Source: Spirochaetia bacterium
Lineage (GTDB): Bacteria; Spirochaetota; Spirochaetia; SZUA-6; Bin103
Length of the DNA: 64,000 nt
Reading direction: 5' to 3'
Assembly: GCA_965203905.1 (NCBI GenBank)
Contig: CBDBDQ010000005.1
Location: 5,472,001-5,536,000, forward strand
Part shown: positions 1 to 7,682 of the stretch, piece after piece
How the letters are laid out: the number at the start of each line of letters is the position of its first letter
Numbering within the stretch: position 1 is the first letter of the stretch
Made by a program: the position numbers and the translations under genes
Notes under the pieces: generated by a model
What the model was told of the DNA's origin: nothing
Seen by the model: only the letters and a program-made list of their open reading frames with translations
The model's database searches: none

Positions 1-321
1 GTGGTCACCGCCCGCGCCAAGGGGGTGGGGGAGCGGCGGCTGTTGTTCAAGTACCCGGTGCGGGTATCGCTGAACCCGATTGTCAGCACCATCGGCTGGA
101 CCCTGCCGGCGATCGTGTCGGGGCAGACCATTACCGCCATCGTGCTGAGCCTGCCCACGGTGGGGCCGCTGCTGCTCGAAGCGCTGGTCAACGAGGACAT
201 CATCCTGGCCGGCAGCGTGGTGATGATACTGAGCTTCCTGACCGTGCTCGGGACACTGCTGTCCGACCTGCTGCTGGTGGTGCTCGACCCGCGCATCCGC
301 TTCGAGGGCGGCAGCCGCTGA
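1..321 (+). CDS. Peptide/oligopeptide ABC transporter permease (DppB/OppB type), 5'-truncated by window edge
   Basis: TARAKG EAA loop and C-terminal LSDLLLVVLDPRIR typical of DppB/OppB. Confidence 0.9.
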   Translation: MVTARAKGVGERRLLFKYPVRVSLNPIVSTIGWTLPAIVSGQTITAIVLSLPTVGPLLLEALVNEDIILAGSVVMILSFLTVLGTLLSDLLLVVLDPRIRFEGGSR

Positions 322-337
322 TGCGCCGGATGCCGCG

Positions 338-1471
338 GTGATGAGGCGCCGAGCCGCGGCCCGTGCCGGAACGGCCGCGCCCGCCGCGAGCGAGCGCTAC
401 TACCTGGCCTCGCAGTGGCAGCTCGCCTGGCGCAAGCTGATCCGCCACCGGCTGGCGCTGGCCGGCGGCGGCGTGCTGCTGCTGCTGTACGTGGCGGCGC
501 TGTTTGCCGGTTTCATCGCGCCCCACGGCCCGTTTACGCGCAACAACGACTTCATCAACGCGCCGCCGACCCCGCTGCGCTTCGTGTCGCAGGACGGGCT
601 GCACCTGCGCCCGTTCGTGTACGCGGTGCGCGGCGAGGTGGACATGGAGTCGCTGCGCCGGCGCTACGCGGAGGACACCTCGCGCCGCTATCCGGTGTCC
701 CTGTTCGTGCGCGGCGAGCCGTACCGGCTGTGGGGTCTGATCGAGACCGACCGCCACCTGTTCGGAGTGGCGGCGCCGGGCGTGATCTACCTGCTCGGCA
801 CCGACGACCTGGGCCGCGACATGTTGGCCCGCGTGCTGCACGCCGGCCGCATCTCGCTCTCGATCGGCCTCCTCGGGGTGGCGTTCAGCTTCGTGCTGGG
901 GCTGCTGTTCGGCGGCCTGTCGGGCTACTACGGCGGCGCCGCGGACCTGGTGATCCAGCGCGTGGTGGAGTTCCTGATCAGCATCCCGCAGATCCCGCTG
1001 TGGATGGCGCTGAGCGCCGCGCTGCCGGCCAACTGGCCGCCGCTGCGGGTCTACTTCGGCATCACCATCATCCTGTCGATCGTCGGCTGGACCGGGTTGG
1101 CGCGGGTGGTGCGCGGCAAGCTGCTGGAACTGCGCGAGAGCGACTTCGTGATGGCGGCGCGGGTCGCCGGCGCGCTGGACGGCGCCATCATCCGGCGCCA
1201 CCTGCTGCCGTCGTTCATGAGTTACCTGATCGTGAGCCTGACGCTGGCGGTGCCCGGCATGATCCTGGGCGAGACCGCGCTCAGCTTCCTCGGCCTCGGC
1301 CTGCGCCCGCCGGTGGTGAGCTGGGGCGTGCTGCTGCAGAAGGCGCAGAACCTGCGCACCGTGGCGCTGCACCCGTGGCTGCTGATTCCCGCCGGCTTCG
1401 TGGTCGTTACCGTGCTCGCCTTCAACTTCCTCGGCGACGGCCTGCGCGACGCCGCCGATCCTTACAAGTAG
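338..1471 (+). CDS. Peptide ABC transporter permease (DppC/OppC type)
   Basis: LLGTDDLGRD motif, EAA loop FVMAARVAGA, C-terminal FNFLGDGLRDAADP. Confidence 0.92.
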   Translation: MMRRRAAARAGTAAPAASERYYLASQWQLAWRKLIRHRLALAGGGVLLLLYVAALFAGFIAPHGPFTRNNDFINAPPTPLRFVSQDGLHLRPFVYAVRGEVDMESLRRRYAEDTSRRYPVSLFVRGEPYRLWGLIETDRHLFGVAAPGVIYLLGTDDLGRDMLARVLHAGRISLSIGLLGVAFSFVLGLLFGGLSGYYGGAADLVIQRVVEFLISIPQIPLWMALSAALPANWPPLRVYFGITIILSIVGWTGLARVVRGKLLELRESDFVMAARVAGALDGAIIRRHLLPSFMSYLIVSLTLAVPGMILGETALSFLGLGLRPPVVSWGVLLQKAQNLRTVALHPWLLIPAGFVVVTVLAFNFLGDGLRDAADPYK

Positions 1472-1555
1472 CGGCTCGGACGCAAGCGCAGCAAGACGAG
1501 TTGGCTCCGGCGGCGACTCGTGTGCTATCCTCCCAAAGCCGACCGTGCACCGACT

Positions 1556-3172
1556 ATGGCAGCACCACTGACCGCAATTGGAAGCGGCCTGCCGGTGTCC
1601 ATCGAGGATCTGATCCATGCGCGCTCCGTCGGGGACAACCGGCGCGAGTTCAAGGCCGCCTGGAATCCGGCTACCAAGGCGGCCGTCGTCCGCTCGATCT
1701 GTGCATTCGCCAATGACCTGCTGAATCTGAACGGCGGATATGTGATTCTGGGCGTCGCGACCGATGCCCGAGGGAATCCCGTTCTCCCGCCGCGCGGCTT
1801 GGAGAATGCAAACGTAGACACCATTCAGCGAGAGATACTCGGACAGTGCAACCGGATCCATCCGCGCTATCATCCCGTGCTGTTTCCTGTTCGGAGCCGG
1901 TGTTTCCGGGGGCCACGATCGACGTCGTGCAGTTCGCGGATGGGGCCGGCGGCGATCTCATCGAGGAGAAGACGTTTCGGGGACCGCTGCACCACCAGGT
2001 CAGACAGACGCTGAGCTACCTGGACTCGCTCGGCAGCACGGTGATCGAGAAAGTGCCAGGCAGAGCGGAAGTAGACAGGACGGTGACCTATCCGCACGAG
2101 GCGATTCGGGAAGCGGTGGTGAACGCCGTCTATCATCGTTCCTACCAGGAGGTCGAACCGACCAAGATCTACCTGTACCCGGATCGAATGGAGGTCACCA
2201 GCTATCCCGGACCGGTGCGGGGAATCGATCTACACCATTTCGCGCGTAACGAATCGGTGCCCGCGGTGCCGGCGAGGAACCGGCGAATCGGAGGATTTCT
2301 GAAGGAACTCAAGCTCGCCGAGTCCAGGGGGACCGGTGTACCCAAGATCCGCCGCCACATGAGCGAGAGCGGGTCGCCGGAGCCGCGTTTCGACTTCGAT
2401 GAGGCGCGGACCTATTTCCGCGTGATTCTGCCCGTTCACCCACGCTATCGGGTGATCCACGCGCTGCGCGAGAGTGCGTTGTTGTGGGCCACCGGCAAGC
2501 GCCGTGAAGCGCTCAACCACCTGTTACGGGTGGCGCAGGATCAGCCCGGCTCCGGCGCCGTCACCGGGCAGCTCATCGAGTACGCCGGGGCGCTCGAAGA
2601 CCTTGGCCTGGCGCAGACCTGCCTGGAACGTTTCGAGTCGGCAGCGGATCGAACCGAGGGCTCGCTGCCTTATCTGCGCTATGCAGCGGTGCTGCTGAAC
2701 CGGGGACAGGACGACGAAGCGCGCAGGTGGCTGAGCCGAGTTCCCGTTACCAGCGGCTACGGTGATCTTCTCGAAGCCGCGCTCCTGAGCAAGCGAGCAC
2801 GAGATTACCGCGAGGCGCATCGACTGTTTCGACAGCATCTATCCCCGTGCCAACGATGACCCCAAGGTGGTGCAGGAATTCGCTCAGACCAAGCTCGCGC
2901 TGGCCCGCGCTCTGCGCCCGCGCGGGCGCGATCTGGCCACCAAGAAGACACTCAATCGACAAGCGGTCGAACTGCTGCGCCGCGCGATCCCTCTGACCGA
3001 TGATCCGACGCGCAAGGCATGGTGCTGGTTCGATCTGGCTCAAACGCTGGCCTGGCTGCGCGATCCGAAGAGCGACGTCGAGCACGCATACCTGCAGGCG
3101 ATGGCACTCAAGCCGGACGAAGACCGGTTTCAGGAGCGTTACGATGAGTGGCGCCACAGGATTGCAGAGTAA
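1556..3172 (+). pseudogene. Disrupted AlbA_2 (Schlafen-like) + HATPase_c_4 (RecG C-terminal-like) + TPR-like protein, in three fragments
   Basis: Fragment 1: REFKAAWN..ICAFAND..NGGYVILGV (AlbA_2). Fragment 2: YPHEAIREAVVNAVYHRSY..RNRRIGGFLKELKLAESRGTG (HATPase_c_4). Frame switch near 1890 with the middle of the protein apparently missing. Removing one T from ctgtttcgac (~2827) fuses fragments 2 and 3 as LFDSIYPRANDDPKVVQEF. Confidence 0.78.
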
Positions 3173-3320
3173 GGTCGCTGTTCGCTCGCTGCAATGTCGT
3201 TTCTCCGTATAAAATAGGCGGGACCGTCCAACTCGTCCCGGAAGTGAAAGAAGCCATCTTCAAGCAGGTGACTTAGAGGACCAGTAACGGTATACCATTA
3301 ATAGACCAGGATGGCGTGGA

Positions 3321-4067
3321 TCACCGTTGGTTGCCCGCTACGTTTTTCATTTTATTCTTTCTCCTCAACTCCTTTCTTAGGAAGTAATTTTTTAGAATTC
3401 CTGTTCCGTTCAGGTTTTTTATTTCATCCAATATCGGCCCCATAGGAGCCGCTGAATCGGAGAAGCTTGCATAGTAAAGATGTGGGATTCCACGTTCACA
3501 GACAAACTCGAGGAGACTTACACTGTGATTCGCTAGCACTCGATCATAATTGGACGCGGACCGCAAATCTTGTCCGCTAGGACCATCCATCCGGTACATC
3601 GAAGGATTCGGATTAGGATGGTTGTGGAAAACAACGATGGTATCTGATCGGAATGTTCTGGTGGCATCGAGCAATGAACCCATCTCCAAGAAAGACGCCA
3701 CAGTATACCGGTCTGGCCCCTTGTTCCACCATAGCATTGAAGCTCTGAAAGACCGAACAAATGCTACTACTATCCACTCGTGCTTCTTGTACTTCAGTAA
3801 TCCTGCAACGCGAGCTGGAAGATCGGTGAATCTCACATCGCAGCCGATGAACTCACCTTCGCTACGCATTGCCTTCTTCTCTTCAGCGGTTGCTGGCTGC
3901 GGTACACTGGAGAAATGGAACTTTGATAGCGCGCGGCTCCGTTGACGCTTCCTCGACAACGTCTGAACCTCCTGACGGCTGAGTGGCTTGGAGTTTAGAG
4001 CTACGTCAATCACCCAAATCAAAAGAGCTATACCGACAGTGCCAAGAAAAAAGGATAGGGCATCCAT
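3321..4067 (-). CDS. N-terminally membrane-anchored RadC-like JAB/MPN domain protein (low GC)
   Basis: AGGAG SD before ATG; hydrophobic N-terminus; E(HEWIV)...VFHNHPN...PSGQD JAB metal motif; visibly AT-richer than flanks. Confidence 0.72.
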   Translation of the reverse strand: MDALSFFLGTVGIALLIWVIDVALNSKPLSRQEVQTLSRKRQRSRALSKFHFSSVPQPATAEEKKAMRSEGEFIGCDVRFTDLPARVAGLLKYKKHEWIVVAFVRSFRASMLWWNKGPDRYTVASFLEMGSLLDATRTFRSDTIVVFHNHPNPNPSMYRMDGPSGQDLRSASNYDRVLANHSVSLLEFVCERGIPHLYYASFSDSAAPMGPILDEIKNLNGTGILKNYFLRKELRRKNKMKNVAGNQR

Positions 4068-4239
4068 GAAACGACTCCTGCGCCTATATTCGCTCCTTCA
4101 GTCTACCATACTCTGCGCCTGTCACTTGAGCGATAGCCAATTTGGCACGGAGGTGCGGTAACATCTCGCATGTGCTAAACAACGGTAGCGGCATGCCGGG
4201 ACTCGAGCGGCGATGAATTCGACCACGTCGAGGGTAGTC

Positions 4240-4480
4240 GTCGCCATCTCGGCTACCTATCTTGCCGACATGGGCACTCAGGCTGCGCTTCCCGCATGTC
4301 ACGCGCTTCGGCGGTGACTCTCGGAGTGGTACGGGCCGGTGGCGCAGGACTGCTTCAACCTTGATCCGGTATACGGCGCCATCGCAGATTCATCCGACTG
4401 ATGTCGGACTGCCGCGGGTGAGTTCGCGATCACGATGGTGGCCCTGCCCGACATCAGTAGCTGGGCTAGCACCTCTCGAC
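4240..4480 (+). pseudogene. Decayed fragment paralogous to the 5' part of the adjacent GH13 gene
   Basis: Colinear matches about 512 bp upstream of the intact gene: gacatgggca (4267 vs 4779), ggtggcgcaggactg (4338 vs 4850), gatccggt (4363 vs 4875), with indels. Confidence 0.75.
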
Positions 4481-4646
4481 CGTCACCTGTATCGTAGGGC
4501 TCCGTCATACGTCGGTTTCGTCGCCGGCCGGTTCGTCGCCAGATGGCGGATTTCTTGTGATCGATGCGCTGCATTCCACGAAGACGAACCCGCGGTGATC
4601 CCGCCCTTGCCTCAAGCCGCCCTTCGGGCAGAGTATCGATCCCGAC

Positions 4647-6005
4647 ATGGCTAAGCCGAAAGGGTGGTGGACCACCCATCCGACGATTCTCACGGTAACG
4701 GTGGCGGGGTGCTGGGACTCGAACGGCGACGGGATCGGCGACTTCGAGGGTATCCGCCGGCACCTCGACGAGCTCATCGACATGGGCATCACCGGGCTGC
4801 GTTTCCAACACGTGACCCGATTCGACGACGACTTCGAGTGGTTCGGGCTGGTGGCGCAGGACTGGTTCGACGTGGATCCGGTGTACGGCACCATGGCCGA
4901 CTTCGAGCGGCTGATGGCCGACTGCCGCGCCCGCGACTTCAAGATCATGGTGATGGCCGTGCCGGAGTACCTGGGCTGGCGCCACCCGGACTATCTGGCG
5001 GCGAAGGAGGCGCGTGCGGCCGGCGTCGACGATCCGCGCATCGGCTGGTTCGGCTGGGAGGATGACGGCAGCGTCACCCTGACCTGGAGCCGCCCCGGGC
5101 CCGACCTCGCCAATCCCTCCTACGTGGACGCCTACCTGAAACACGTGGCGTTCTGGATGGACAAGGGCATCGCCGGCTGGGACGTCGATGCGCCAACCAC
5201 CTGGCACCACTTCAACCTGGACGCGGTGCGTGCGCTCACCCGCTGCGTCAAGGCACGCGGCGGCTTCGTGACCAGCGAGAACCTGGCGCTGGAGCACGAC
5301 ATCATCCGCCAGGGCGGATTCAACGCCGGCACCGGCGTCCGCCGCATCCAGCTCTACCACGAGGTGCAGGCGATGCTGGACCGCGACGCGGATCACATCC
5401 GCCGCGGCATGGCGCGGCGGCGGCAGCTCATCGAGGCAGGCATGTTTCCGTACCAGCAGTTCGGCGACGACATGTACGAGCAGTACAGCGGCAAGAACCT
5501 GCCCTGGAAGGTGCAGATGTTCCGCCTGCAGGTGGCCTTCAACGCCGCGCTGCCCGACCAGGTGTGGGCGTTCGCCAACACCATCGCCTTTCCCACCGGG
5601 CCGCTGCAGCCCCTGCCCTCGCTGGATTGCGTGTGCTGGGGGCAGCTCGACCTGCCGGAGATCGAACGCCAGAAGGCCGAGCCGCACTCCCCATTCGGCT
5701 TCTTCACGCGCATGATGGCGTTGCGCGCGCGGGAAAAGGCGCTGGCGATCGGCGACATGCAGGAGCTGCCCACCGACCGCCGCCGGCCGGTATTCGCGGC
5801 GCTGCGCACCAGCGAGTATGGCACGGAGCGGGCGGTGACCGTGTTCAACTTCAGCGGCGAGCCGTGCCGGGTGCGAGTCACGTTGGGGGAGGGGATCGAT
5901 ACCCTGCGCAACTACCTCAGCGGCGAGGTGATCCGGCCTGTCGGCGGGACCTTGACGGTGGATCTCGGCCGGTTCGGCTTCAAGCTGTTCGCCGTGATCG
6001 ATTGA
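4647..6005 (+). CDS. Divergent alpha-amylase family (GH13) glycoside hydrolase
   Basis: DSNGDGIGDFEGI, VDPVYGTMADFERL, catalytic-like GWDVDAP and SENL, C-terminal beta-sandwich VFNFSGEP. Confidence 0.85.
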   Translation: MAKPKGWWTTHPTILTVTVAGCWDSNGDGIGDFEGIRRHLDELIDMGITGLRFQHVTRFDDDFEWFGLVAQDWFDVDPVYGTMADFERLMADCRARDFKIMVMAVPEYLGWRHPDYLAAKEARAAGVDDPRIGWFGWEDDGSVTLTWSRPGPDLANPSYVDAYLKHVAFWMDKGIAGWDVDAPTTWHHFNLDAVRALTRCVKARGGFVTSENLALEHDIIRQGGFNAGTGVRRIQLYHEVQAMLDRDADHIRRGMARRRQLIEAGMFPYQQFGDDMYEQYSGKNLPWKVQMFRLQVAFNAALPDQVWAFANTIAFPTGPLQPLPSLDCVCWGQLDLPEIERQKAEPHSPFGFFTRMMALRAREKALAIGDMQELPTDRRRPVFAALRTSEYGTERAVTVFNFSGEPCRVRVTLGEGIDTLRNYLSGEVIRPVGGTLTVDLGRFGFKLFAVID

Positions 6006-6081
6006 CCGATAACGACGGAGTCTGAGCAGCTATCATGATGCTGGACGAACATAATGTTGTTCCGGCATAATACTTCGTGAA

Positions 6082-7482
6082 GTGAGGCTGGCTTTTCTCA
6101 ACCGACAGCGTGAGTTGACCAGGCTGCGCCGTGCGTTGGCGCGCCCGGGCGAGTCGCTGATCGTCGTCTACGGGCGGCGCCGGTGCGGCAAGTCGCGGCT
6201 GCTGCAGGAGGCGCTGCGCGAACACCGGCACGTGTACTACGTGGCCGACTTGAGCGCCGCCGGTATCCAGCGCCAGGCGCTGGCGGTGGAGATGGAGCGG
6301 GTTGTGCCGGGCTTTGCCACCGCATCCTATCCTGATTGGACAGCGCTCCTGGAAACCTGGTGTGCGCGGGCGCCTGACGGCGCCTGGCTGGTATTGGATG
6401 AGTTGCCGTATCTGGTGCAGGTCTCCCCGGCGCTTCCGAGCATCATTCAAAAGCTGATCGACGCGCCACGCACCGGGTCGCCGCGGCTGCTGCTGTGTGG
6501 TTCTTCACAACGCATGATGCACGGCCTGGTCCTGGACGAGACCGCGCCGCTGTACGGCAGAGCCGCGGAGATCATCAGGGTCACCCCCATGCCGCCTGCC
6601 GCGCTGCGGGATGCGCTGCAGCTGGACCCGGAACAGAGCGTGGTTGCGTATTCCATATGGGGAGGGTTGCCGCGCAACTGGGAGCTGGCGGCGGACTACG
6701 GCTCCACGGCGGAGGCGATCTCGGCACTCATCCTGGACCGCAACGGCGTGCTGCACGGGGAACCGTCCCGTCTGCTGCTTGACGATGGGCGCAGCATCGT
6801 ACAGGCCAACTCGCTGCTGGCACTGATCGGCGCAGAGTGCCACCGTATAAGCGAGATCGGTGGGCGTCTCGGCCAGCCGGCGACCAGCCTGACCCGTCCG
6901 CTGAGCCGGCTGATCGAGCTTGGCTACGTCCGGCGCGAACTCCCGTTTGGCGAGAGTACGCGGTCCACGAAACGCACCGCGTATCGTCTGGATGATCCGT
7001 TTCTGCTGTTCTGGTATCGATTCGTGGCGCCCAACCGTTCCCGTCTGGAGGCCGATCTCATCGCGCCGGTATACGCCGACGTGCGCACGCGACTCGCGGG
7101 CCACGTAGCGGAGGTGTGGGAGTGGCTGGCGCGAGATTCCGTGGCTCGCATGACGCTGCACGGCATGGACTGGAACCCCGCTGCGCGCTGGTGGGGCCGA
7201 GGTTCCGATGGGGTGCCACTGGAGCTCGACGTCGTGGCCGAGTCCTCTGACCGGCGCCATCTGCTCGTCGGAGAGGTGAAGTGGACGGACCGTTTCCGCC
7301 CGGCGAGCGTGCTTGCCGACCTCAAGCGCAAGGCGCAGCAGTTGCCGTTCCGCCGCGGCCGGCGGGTGCACTTTGCACTGTGGATGAAGCGCACTGCCGC
7401 CACCGCGGTGGATGGAGTGCCCGTCATCGGGCCGGACACCGTGCTGGACCGAACGGCAGGAGGGAAAGCGCGCGCTCACTGA
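6082..7482 (+). CDS. Archaeal-type ATPase (ATPase_2) with wHTH, DUF234 and C-terminal PD-(D/E)XK-like domain
   Basis: FLNRQREL, Walker A YGRRRCGKS, Walker B LVLDELPY, LCGSS, YRLDDPFLLFWYRF, ELDVV..VGEVKW. Confidence 0.85.
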   Translation: MRLAFLNRQRELTRLRRALARPGESLIVVYGRRRCGKSRLLQEALREHRHVYYVADLSAAGIQRQALAVEMERVVPGFATASYPDWTALLETWCARAPDGAWLVLDELPYLVQVSPALPSIIQKLIDAPRTGSPRLLLCGSSQRMMHGLVLDETAPLYGRAAEIIRVTPMPPAALRDALQLDPEQSVVAYSIWGGLPRNWELAADYGSTAEAISALILDRNGVLHGEPSRLLLDDGRSIVQANSLLALIGAECHRISEIGGRLGQPATSLTRPLSRLIELGYVRRELPFGESTRSTKRTAYRLDDPFLLFWYRFVAPNRSRLEADLIAPVYADVRTRLAGHVAEVWEWLARDSVARMTLHGMDWNPAARWWGRGSDGVPLELDVVAESSDRRHLLVGEVKWTDRFRPASVLADLKRKAQQLPFRRGRRVHFALWMKRTAATAVDGVPVIGPDTVLDRTAGGKARAH

Positions 7483-7682
7483 GTTGGCCGTGGAGGACGA
7501 TCTGGACGTGGGACCTTCCAGAGCGTCTATCGGTCCGCACCGTCGCGCGTGGCCTGCAATGCTCCCGTGCTGTTGGGGGAGACCCTCCGGTTGGTATGAG
7601 AAAGTTGCCGATATGACCTCAAGGCGTTCCGGACATTTGCCGATATAGAAAAGTGAGGGCGTTACGCTCCTTGAGAGTTGCG

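Follow-up and report, generated by a model that had tools for sequence, protein, structure and literature searches.

The locus described here raises the question of what a lone, membrane-anchored relative of RadC would do in a spirochaete, and of how its gene came to be there. It lies near the start of a 64,000-nucleotide stretch of DNA (positions 5,472,001 to 5,536,000 of contig CBDBDQ010000005.1, assembly GCA_965203905.1), called the window below, from a Spirochaetia bacterium with a large (8.0 Mb), GC-rich genome. The gene in question, referred to as the JAB gene, encodes a protein (P0001) that is very probably a small bitopic inner-membrane protein with a divergent RadC-type JAB/MPN+ domain on the cytoplasmic face. 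A sequence-only reading of the window had proposed a RadC-like domain fused to a transmembrane anchor, and had gone on to suggest that the gene was acquired horizontally and acts alone as a defence or anti-mobile-element factor. Few bacterial domains still without a known activity are as widespread as the RadC-type JAB, and this family would offer a compact version, with ∼220 soluble residues, an invariant active site and a fixed cellular address.

The JAB domain and its predicted membrane anchor

Searched on its own, the window protein is hard to place. Its only Pfam match of any JAB kind was to RadC (PF04002), at 12.6 bits (E 0.13) and below the 22.1-bit gathering threshold; no family of NCBIfam, PADLOC (E ≤ 1) or PHROGs matched it, and a single-sequence search of PDB returned chance-level matches only, for example to an aminotransferase at E 0.007 over the HNHPNP stretch. 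By a word-indexed search, 154 homologues were recovered at E ≤ 1e-3; the best non-self one was 60% identical (E 1e-92), and all that bore a name were labelled 'hypothetical'. An exhaustive HMMER search of 1.84 billion representatives yielded 283 clusters (50% identity) at E ≤ 1e-3, 53 of them at E ≤ 1e-30. Although the single-sequence evidence is weak, the family profile settles the predicted RadC-type JAB identity, because the family behind the protein carries profile-level homology.

That homology was seen when the family, aligned as 95 members of the usual length (alignment A2), was compared by hhalign with 24 RadC JAB domains taken from genomes of the host phylum. The two profiles matched over 101 columns with a probability of 97.8% (E 8.7e-13), so that E97 falls on the RadC Glu and the HNHP and PSxxD motifs of the two coincide, while the controls, a reversed RadC alignment and five column-shuffled ones, gave probabilities of 1.2% or less. 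The RadC homologue 2qlc was the top PDB match of the family profile (E 0.013), and five relatives exceeded the Pfam RadC threshold by themselves (P0244, 28.1 bits; P0126, 26.1; P0141, 25.9; P0260, 25.4; P0162, 24.3). In the ESM Atlas clusters nearest to homologue P0004, RadC was found in 13–16% of members. Apart from the JAB gene, the host carries five canonical RadC-domain genes, one in a 378-amino-acid frame and four in frames of ∼205 amino acids, with two of the five on small contigs.

The residues expected of a metalloenzyme are retained almost without exception, being present at E97 in 94, H148 in 95, H150 in 94, S164 in 94 and D167 in 95 of the 95 members, so that the RadC-like domain with an intact E...HNHP...SxxD motif proposed from the sequence was borne out. 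The further proposal, that this motif is spaced as in RadC, stood for one interval and failed for the other. E97 and the HxH are 51 residues apart in the window protein and 50 in RadC (a hand count on RadC sequences), but the HxH and the Ser are separated by 13 residues, as they are in 70 of the 91 members that carry HNHP, versus 7 in all 24 RadC domains. Some conserved residues are peculiar to the family, namely K94 and W98 (invariant), K95 and H96 (nearly invariant), the W113-x-N-K-G117 motif, and C190 within FVCERG. Between the anchor and the JAB domain, residues 25–85 follow the pattern PL..E...L..KR.R ... KK.M...G.F, with L29, L37, K64, G71 and P84 invariant or nearly so (alignments A1/A2) and no Pfam match. 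An HhH domain was likewise not matched by Pfam in the window protein.

The hydrophobic helix and basic linker named in the sequence-only reading are properties of the family as well as of the window protein. A 19-residue N-terminal stretch with a Kyte-Doolittle mean of at least 1.6 was present in 89 of the 95 members (median 2.46, starting at median residue 3), and only 5 members had any such stretch further along. Ahead of the helix, 15 residues contain on average 0.1 Lys or Arg, against 5.9 in the 25 residues that follow it, the charge being greater on the C-terminal side in 95 of 95 members; the window protein has none before the hydrophobic stretch and 8 in the 25 residues after it. Positive charge marks the cytoplasmic side of membrane helices (the positive-inside rule), and by this rule the helix is predicted to be an N-out/C-in anchor rather than a Sec signal peptide, which would place the JAB domain in the cytoplasm. 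Longer relatives have domains that agree with the predicted topology: P0260 has a signal peptide and PG_binding_1 N-terminal to the helix, while P0196, P0256 and P0262 (and weakly P0263) have an extra helix after the JAB domain, followed by NADase_transloc or BspA-type LRR domains, and in each case the added domain would be extracytoplasmic.

Insertion into the host genome and gene-sized mobility

The JAB gene was inserted recently and horizontally into the host genome. Measured in 300-nt windows, GC content is 0.457–0.523 over positions 3151–4200 and 0.61–0.73 in both flanks, consistent with the AT-richer insert that had been noticed in the sequence. The gene order around it, comprising a peptide-ABC permease, a Schlafen/HATPase_c_4/TPR gene, an alpha-amylase-family gene and sugar-ABC permeases, is common to the window and to two genomes of the same genus (G043 and G046), which by synteny, blastn and junction alignment have a spacer of 117–118 bp at the site of the window's ∼1.4 kb insert. 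RuvB, encoded elsewhere in the window, shares 82% identity with a protein from a 'Spirochaetaceae bacterium' MAG and 73% with the RuvB of two high-GC 'Spirochaetes bacterium' MAGs, which places the host in a spirochaete lineage with large, GC-rich genomes. Of the 61 genomes surveyed at the level of the order, just two have a member of the family, the host and a congener (G048), and among 401 sampled genomes of the phylum a clear match was found in the host only, together with one other weak, stop-interrupted match. The earlier proposal of horizontal acquisition is thus upheld. The copy in G048 (L117, G048:C149:35375-39064) lies at a different locus, belongs to another subfamily, and occupies an AT-rich island of its own (GC 0.41–0.47 against ∼0.67); it is a second, independent acquisition in the genus. 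This copy sits downstream of a small opposite-strand open reading frame (ORF) that by eye appears HTH/antitoxin-like.

The insert also holds a decayed partial copy of the adjacent alpha-amylase-family gene. This fragment and the amylase gene form direct repeats (4181–4416 and 4697–4929), and by blastn the fragment matches the amylase genes of the congeners. It is the scar of the rearrangement that delivered the JAB gene, and it may be a piece of the donor's homologous locus. No target-site duplication or terminal inverted repeat was found at the insert junctions, no integrase or transposase marks the insert, and there is no tRNA in the window.

To evaluate how widely the family occurs, conserved peptide patterns were scanned in one genome per species across 185,579 species, giving 60 loci, a count that underestimates the family since members lacking those patterns escape the scan. 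At 57 of the 60 a recognisable member was called, using a greedy longest-ORF caller that can miscall in GC-rich DNA. The bacterial phyla represented include Acidobacteriota, Nitrospirota, Ignavibacteriota, Dormibacterota, Hydrogenedentota, Rhodothermota, Zixibacteria, Verrucomicrobiota, Planctomycetota, Cloacimonadota, Chloroflexota, Bacillota, Thermotogota, Armatimonadota and Thermodesulfobacteriota, and archaeal members include Methanolobus, Methanofollis, a Woesearchaeote and a Bathyarchaeote. GC content of the member was more than 3 points below the rest of its locus in 43 of 57 cases and more than 3 points above it in 4, with a median difference of -6.1 points. The conserved motifs, rich in Lys, Asn, Phe and Tyr, may account for part of this, but the 19-point gap in the window exceeds what they would explain.

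The phylogeny and the DNA itself both cross taxonomic boundaries. In a quick maximum-likelihood tree of 52 rows (six of the 57 loci were dropped, having an ORF shorter than 200 amino acids or no KKHEW-like anchor), the window protein fell in a clade of 15 rows from at least eight phylum labels (SH-aLRT 100), and phylum labels across the tree required 29 changes against a minimum of 19. Copies from Ignavibacteriales, Dormibacterota and Nitrospirota (L003–L006) are 87–90% identical in DNA over 744–785 bp, and this similarity reaches no more than ∼7 bp past the ORF on its upstream side and 45 bp on its downstream side; copies from a Woesearchaeote, a Cloacimonadota genome and an unclassified bacterium (L019, L029, L031) are 82–89% identical over 742–770 bp. 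In both groups the flanks are unrelated. Since the shared DNA ends close to the ORF and the flanks are unrelated, the moving unit is approximately gene-sized. The family is thus unannotated, patchily distributed, stand-alone and mobile, and the presence of ORF-sized DNA at 82–90% identity across phylum labels, and even in another domain of life, with no visible carrier, raises the question of how the gene moves.

Integron attC core sites follow the consensus GTTRRRY, and in the L003–L006 group the shared DNA ends exactly at GTTAGGC, with the inverse GCCGAAC 48 nt upstream, a putative attC-like arrangement for which the evidence is thin. An attC-like hairpin did better than shuffled sequences in one of the four loci folded, an integron-integrase-like recombinase was nearby in one of 57 loci, a search of nine loci against Rfam found only a tRNA, and no cassette-like boundary was seen in the window. 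One member of this group, the JAB gene of an Ignavibacteriales contig (L005), lies between long inverted repeats (5109–5350 and 7058–7498, with 210 nt at 88% complementarity and 27 nt at 96%), and the segment between them may be invertible or duplicated.

Mobility of this kind could mean that the gene is cargo that aids a mobile element, through anti-defence or establishment, as might the RadC/YeeS-type JABs found on prophages and conjugative elements; in E. coli, prophage copies of the RadC-type JAB are YeeS, YkfG and YfjY. The gene is clearly mobile, and tyrosine recombinases lie within a few genes of it in 5 of 57 loci, but no relative came up by tblastn in 50,697 phage records or 72,556 plasmids, nor among the 164 pattern matches obtained from IMG/VR viral contigs, the insert in the window has no mobility gene, and most loci have no element context. 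We therefore regard a role as element cargo as very unlikely.

Fusions, neighbourhoods and proposed function

Our tentative preference is for a membrane-tethered hydrolase whose substrate, located at the membrane's inner face, would be DNA or a protein bound or linked to it. The single N-terminal helix, with almost nothing outside the cell, would hold a JAB/MPN+ zinc hydrolase at the cytoplasmic membrane face, and the tether would limit the enzyme to substrates that arrive at the membrane or sit on it. By analogy with other JAB enzymes, H148, H150 and D167 would bind Zn2+ and E97 would activate water, and from the same analogy we infer zinc hydrolysis by the JAB domain. The substrate at the membrane would most likely be DNA, or protein bound or linked to DNA, because the cytoplasmic fusions of relatives are mostly to DNA-handling domains (RuvB-like, FtsK, Mrr, SWIM and KTSC). 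These fusions add two families of ring translocases for double-stranded DNA (RuvB-like and FtsK), a PD-(D/E)xK nuclease and a SWIM finger, which favours DNA at the membrane, and the natural RuvB, FtsK and Mrr fusions suggest concrete substrates. The gene would then be an accessory 'conflict' gene, processing or restricting DNA as this enters or is moved at the membrane. Such a conflict role against invading DNA, though speculative, would be in line with the family's mobility, patchy distribution and partners. A nucleic-acid role for RadC-type JABs was inferred on similar grounds by Iyer et al., who, in the passages drawn on here, point to fusions with HhH, ArdC, primase and DinG (PMC3239186, PMC5512222).

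The fusions were surveyed in 30 of the 34 representatives of at least 330 amino acids, among 150 representatives listed from the 283 clusters. On the cytoplasmic side, a RuvB-like AAA+ module was present in three (P0121, P0123, P0145), KTSC in four (P0141, P0158, P0186, P0240) and PTS_EIIA_2 in one (P0129); Mrr_cat was fused in two (P0162, P0216), SWIM in one (P0172), and FtsK_alpha with FtsK_SpoIIIE followed the JAB domain in one (P0234). Domains on the outer side were LRR_5 in three (P0256, P0262 and a weak match in P0263), NADase_transloc/F5-8-type-C in one (P0196) and PG_binding_1 in one (P0260). Twelve of the 30 had no extra Pfam domain, and P0122 had only a weak match to FlgD_ig, below the Pfam threshold. 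A ∼130-amino-acid C-terminal extension with conserved Cys/Gly motifs, recognised by eye, is common to P0127, P0091 and L016:5950-7038, and Pfam is blank for it in P0127 and P0091, the two that were scanned.

The RuvB fusions are the best documented of these. A search restricted to longer proteins gave four matches, and all four were RuvB fusions. Anchor-JAB-RuvB proteins of ∼610–690 amino acids are encoded twice on each of two complete 'Candidatus Multivorans' (Acidobacteriota) chromosomes (L009:6001-7896, L015:6072-7910, L008:5878-7938 and L010:5878-7704, the last of which ends early), with varied and partly element-like neighbours (a ParA-like gene, HTH, a DUF222-HNH gene and a CO-dehydrogenase flavoprotein). 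On each chromosome a canonical RuvB is encoded apart from these and is the top-scoring match, and the fused modules are therefore paralogues rather than the housekeeping motor. Two of six fused RuvB modules keep the GK-T P-loop, three have Gly, Arg or Ala directly after the lysine, and one has no P-loop.

Several observations weigh against DNA, or protein on DNA, as the substrate. RadC-type JABs have no known biochemical activity, and every characterised JAB/MPN+ enzyme is a peptidase, as far as the consulted portions of two published accounts extend (PMC11981726, PMC5512222). No DNA module is fused to the window protein, and only a minority of the family has fusions at all. Non-DNA fusions occur too (PTS_EIIA_2, LRR_5, NADase_transloc, PG_binding_1), and the RuvB-like modules with altered or absent P-loops may not be motors. 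All-against-all clustering of 622 ORFs from the 60 loci gave no recurrent neighbour that would support any pathway. Finally, the MPN fold, the zinc binding and the topology are themselves predictions from sequence.

The peptidase activity of the characterised enzymes also speaks for a membrane-tethered peptidase or isopeptidase that would process or untag a membrane-proximal protein and that, in the longer relatives, would serve as the cytoplasmic output of a transmembrane sensor, much as in the BlaR1-type sensor-proteases. Relatives do pair a cytoplasmic JAB domain with outer domains of ligand-binding type (LRR_5 in P0256 and P0262, weakly in P0263; the outer domains of P0196 and P0260), and a peptidase would represent a new membrane-tethered JAB. 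However, the family is homologous to the RadC clade, which Iyer et al. argue, in the section of their account that treats it, has no groove for a ubiquitin tail (PMC5512222). No ubiquitin-like protein (Ubl), E1, E2 or other candidate substrate gene is conserved near the 57 loci, the cytoplasmic fusions are mostly DNA-related, and the window protein, having essentially no extracellular part, cannot itself sense outside signals. On balance, a purely protein-directed peptidase or signalling role takes second place; it is somewhat unlikely, if still a serious candidate.

A more specific form of the preferred DNA-directed hydrolase is a membrane barrier to incoming DNA, in which the RadC-type JAB would cut DNA as it enters or clip a protein attached or tightly bound to it; a conjugative relaxase, a phage terminal protein or a pilot protein would be candidates for such clipping. 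In some lineages the enzyme would be joined to a ring translocase (RuvB-like or FtsK) or to an Mrr nuclease. We consider this version unlikely as stated. If true, it would provide the first biochemical handle on RadC-type JAB domains, and an enzyme acting on entering DNA would be a new single-gene barrier to gene transfer. One possibility that would reconcile peptidase chemistry with the DNA context of RadC is that RadC-type JABs are DNA-dependent metalloproteases.

The genes around the family were examined for a conserved partner or a link to defence. In the clustering of 622 neighbouring ORFs, called with the same greedy caller, no conserved neighbour was found; the largest cluster consisted of tyrosine recombinases at five loci, and the next covered three loci. 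Among 150 of the 179 ORFs lying within two genes of a member (the near set), Pfam matched Phage_integrase in 4, HTH_31 in 3, and AAA_15 with an OLD-like TOPRIM in 2, the other matches being single housekeeping families (CTP synthase, RmuC, Mg chelatase, sugar isomerases, dehydrogenases). No E1, E2, Ubl or cyclase was found among six ORFs scanned within 1520–7482 of the window, nor among the top 25 Pfam families of the 150 near ORFs, in keeping with the observation, made earlier from the sequence, that no such partner is visible. PADLOC models matched at E ≤ 1e-10 numbered 127 in the near set and 54 in a far set (150 of the 217 ORFs at least four genes away), but these are redundant models rather than proteins, many of them hitting the same two OLD-like ATPases, and no model matched more than two ORFs in either set, so that the comparison is too crude to indicate enrichment.

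These neighbourhoods bear on the suggestion that the gene is a stand-alone, single-gene anti-phage or anti-mobile-element factor working like the JAB isopeptidases of CBASS and Bil. The gene is horizontally acquired, AT-rich, patchy and single, as such a factor might be, and the window context is mildly suggestive of defence: the spot is variable, the Schlafen AlbA_2/HATPase_c_4 gene that flanks the JAB gene on one side has, in part, pAgo-associated matches in PADLOC, and a PDC-S27 candidate lies ∼2 kb away. Mrr_cat is fused in two relatives, and OLD/Gabija-like ATPases make up 2 of the 150 near ORFs. Against this, P0001 has no PADLOC or PHROG match, homology is to RadC rather than to the JABs of CBASS or Bil, most neighbours are housekeeping genes, the higher PADLOC count of the near set is inflated by redundant models on few proteins, and an isopeptidase of this kind is unlikely because no partner gene was present at any locus examined, in the scanned window ORFs or at the 57 loci. 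A defence role for the family is plausible, but as proposed for this gene it is not supported, since PADLOC finds no match and the neighbourhoods in 57 other genomes mix housekeeping and mobile genes, with defence-like genes appearing only sporadically. The CBASS/Bil analogy in particular is the weaker lead, because the family is a homologue of the RadC clade and its fusions speak for DNA and not for ubiquitin-like proteins. We judge the whole reading, a stand-alone defence factor of this kind, distinctly unlikely.

It is also conceivable that the gene is an inert passenger or a decaying remnant with no current function in the host. It lies in a scarred region, with the decayed amylase fragment alongside and the adjacent Schlafen-like gene in three ORFs, and no sigma-70-like promoter was found on its strand. 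However, its frame is intact and has the full length seen in the family, no catalytic or near-invariant residue has been lost, and an AGGAG is well placed 5' of the start codon, making this hardly likely at all. Downstream of the stop codon, a fold of the minus strand over 3175–3330 was no better than shuffled sequences (z 0.79). No RNA dataset was listed that covers 3000–4700. A 2112-nt contig from a public run equals 2541–4652 with zero differences, but the run may be the source sample of the window and so is not independent support; contigs from two runs of one study cover the JAB gene, which indicates presence only and possibly in the source sample. A 72-amino-acid ORF just 5' of the JAB gene (4084–4302, minus strand) was rejected as a partner because it runs antisense to the amylase fragment over half its length and other loci have no conserved upstream ORF.

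The surrounding genes show further differences from the congeners. The Schlafen AlbA_2, HATPase_c_4 and TPR gene (1520–3172, plus strand) is divided by a frame change and a stop into three ORFs of 164, 337 and 101 amino acids, while its G043 counterpart is a single ORF of 569 amino acids; the split gene is either a pseudogene or an assembly error. An ATPase_2 + DUF234 gene (6082–7482, plus strand; PADLOC candidate PDC-S27, E 4.9e-26) marks a second insertion when G043 and G046 are taken for comparison, since in these two the amylase gene abuts the sugar-ABC permease genes; in a further genome (G045) the amylase gene occurs together with an ATPase_2 + DUF234 gene. The locus looks like a hotspot for accessory genes. 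The peptide-ABC permease at 1–1471 (plus strand) has dozens of paralogues at 70–76% DNA identity in the host and in each congener, a very large expansion of one transporter family.

Table 1. Coordinates of the JAB gene, its encoded parts and the surrounding insert (positions in the window).
Feature	Position	Strand	Remarks
CDS, 248-amino-acid membrane-anchored RadC-like JAB protein (P0001)	3321..4067	-	open frame, stop codon included
Hydrophobic membrane anchor, residues ∼4–24, predicted N-out/C-in	3996..4058	-	best 19-residue Kyte-Doolittle mean 2.35
Basic juxtamembrane linker (SRKRQRSR) and family-specific conserved segment, residues 25–85	3813..3995	-	alignments A1/A2
Divergent RadC-type JAB (MPN+) domain, residues 86–195 (predicted)	3483..3812	-	hhalign against RadC domains
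E97 codon (in KYKKHEW), aligns with the RadC catalytic Glu	3777..3779	-	Glu in 94/95 members
H148-N-H150-P151 codons, putative zinc-binding HxH	3615..3626	-	aligned to RadC HNHP
S164-G-Q-D167 codons (SxxD)	3567..3578	-	13 residues past HxH
Shine-Dalgarno-like AGGAG	4075..4079	-	7 nt 5' of ATG; read from sequence
Hairpin GGGACG...CGGUCCC, then U-rich run	3219..3240	-	∼80 nt 3' of stop; possible terminator, weakly supported
Inserted block, ∼1.4 kb, approximate bounds	3175..4590		without counterpart in two same-genus genomes
Decayed partial copy of 5' part of adjacent alpha-amylase-family gene	4181..4480	+	300 bp, 74–76% identity, codons ∼17–115

Comparison with known systems

A search of the literature found no description of a membrane-anchored RadC-like JAB, although supplements of domain-architecture papers could list one. 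In this family the RadC-type JAB has a new architecture and is set apart by its loop, by fusion partners that are new and by an unusual, gene-sized mobility.

The JAB/MPN+ metalloenzyme signature is shared with Cap3 of CBASS and BilC of Bil, but the window protein is membrane-anchored, belongs to the RadC clade, and has neither adjacent E1, E2, Ubl or CD-NTase genes nor a PADLOC match. In its movement the family resembles integron cassettes, which are likewise promoter-less single-ORF units that pass between unrelated genomes with bounds a few bases from the ORF, and the GTTAGGC end of one subgroup fits the attC core. It differs from them in the scarcity of hairpins that beat shuffled sequences and of integrase-like recombinases near its members, and in the lack of such a boundary in the window. 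The layout recalls FtsK/SpoIIIE, in which a cytoplasmic module that handles nucleic acid is held by N-terminal helices, and relative P0234 carries FtsK domains; the window protein has no motor domain, and the likeness is one of layout, with no homology claimed.

Fusion of a RadC-type JAB to a DNA-handling partner is known from RadC-like DinG helicases and from RadC-ArdC and RadC-DnaG primase fusions (Iyer et al. 2011, 2017; a 2025 review of DinG), and relatives of the window protein do the same with different partners (RuvB-like, FtsK, Mrr_cat and SWIM), the JAB domain being N-terminal and membrane-anchored, whereas the window protein has no partner. Compared with RadC/UPF0758 itself (PF04002; 2qlc), the window protein is sub-threshold in Pfam, has a 6-residue insertion between HxH and Ser, carries the KYKKHEW, WxNKG and FVCERG motifs together with the N-terminal anchor and basic linker, and showed no HhH. 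What the two have in common is a homologous E...HNHP...PSxxD domain with the same E-to-HxH spacing.

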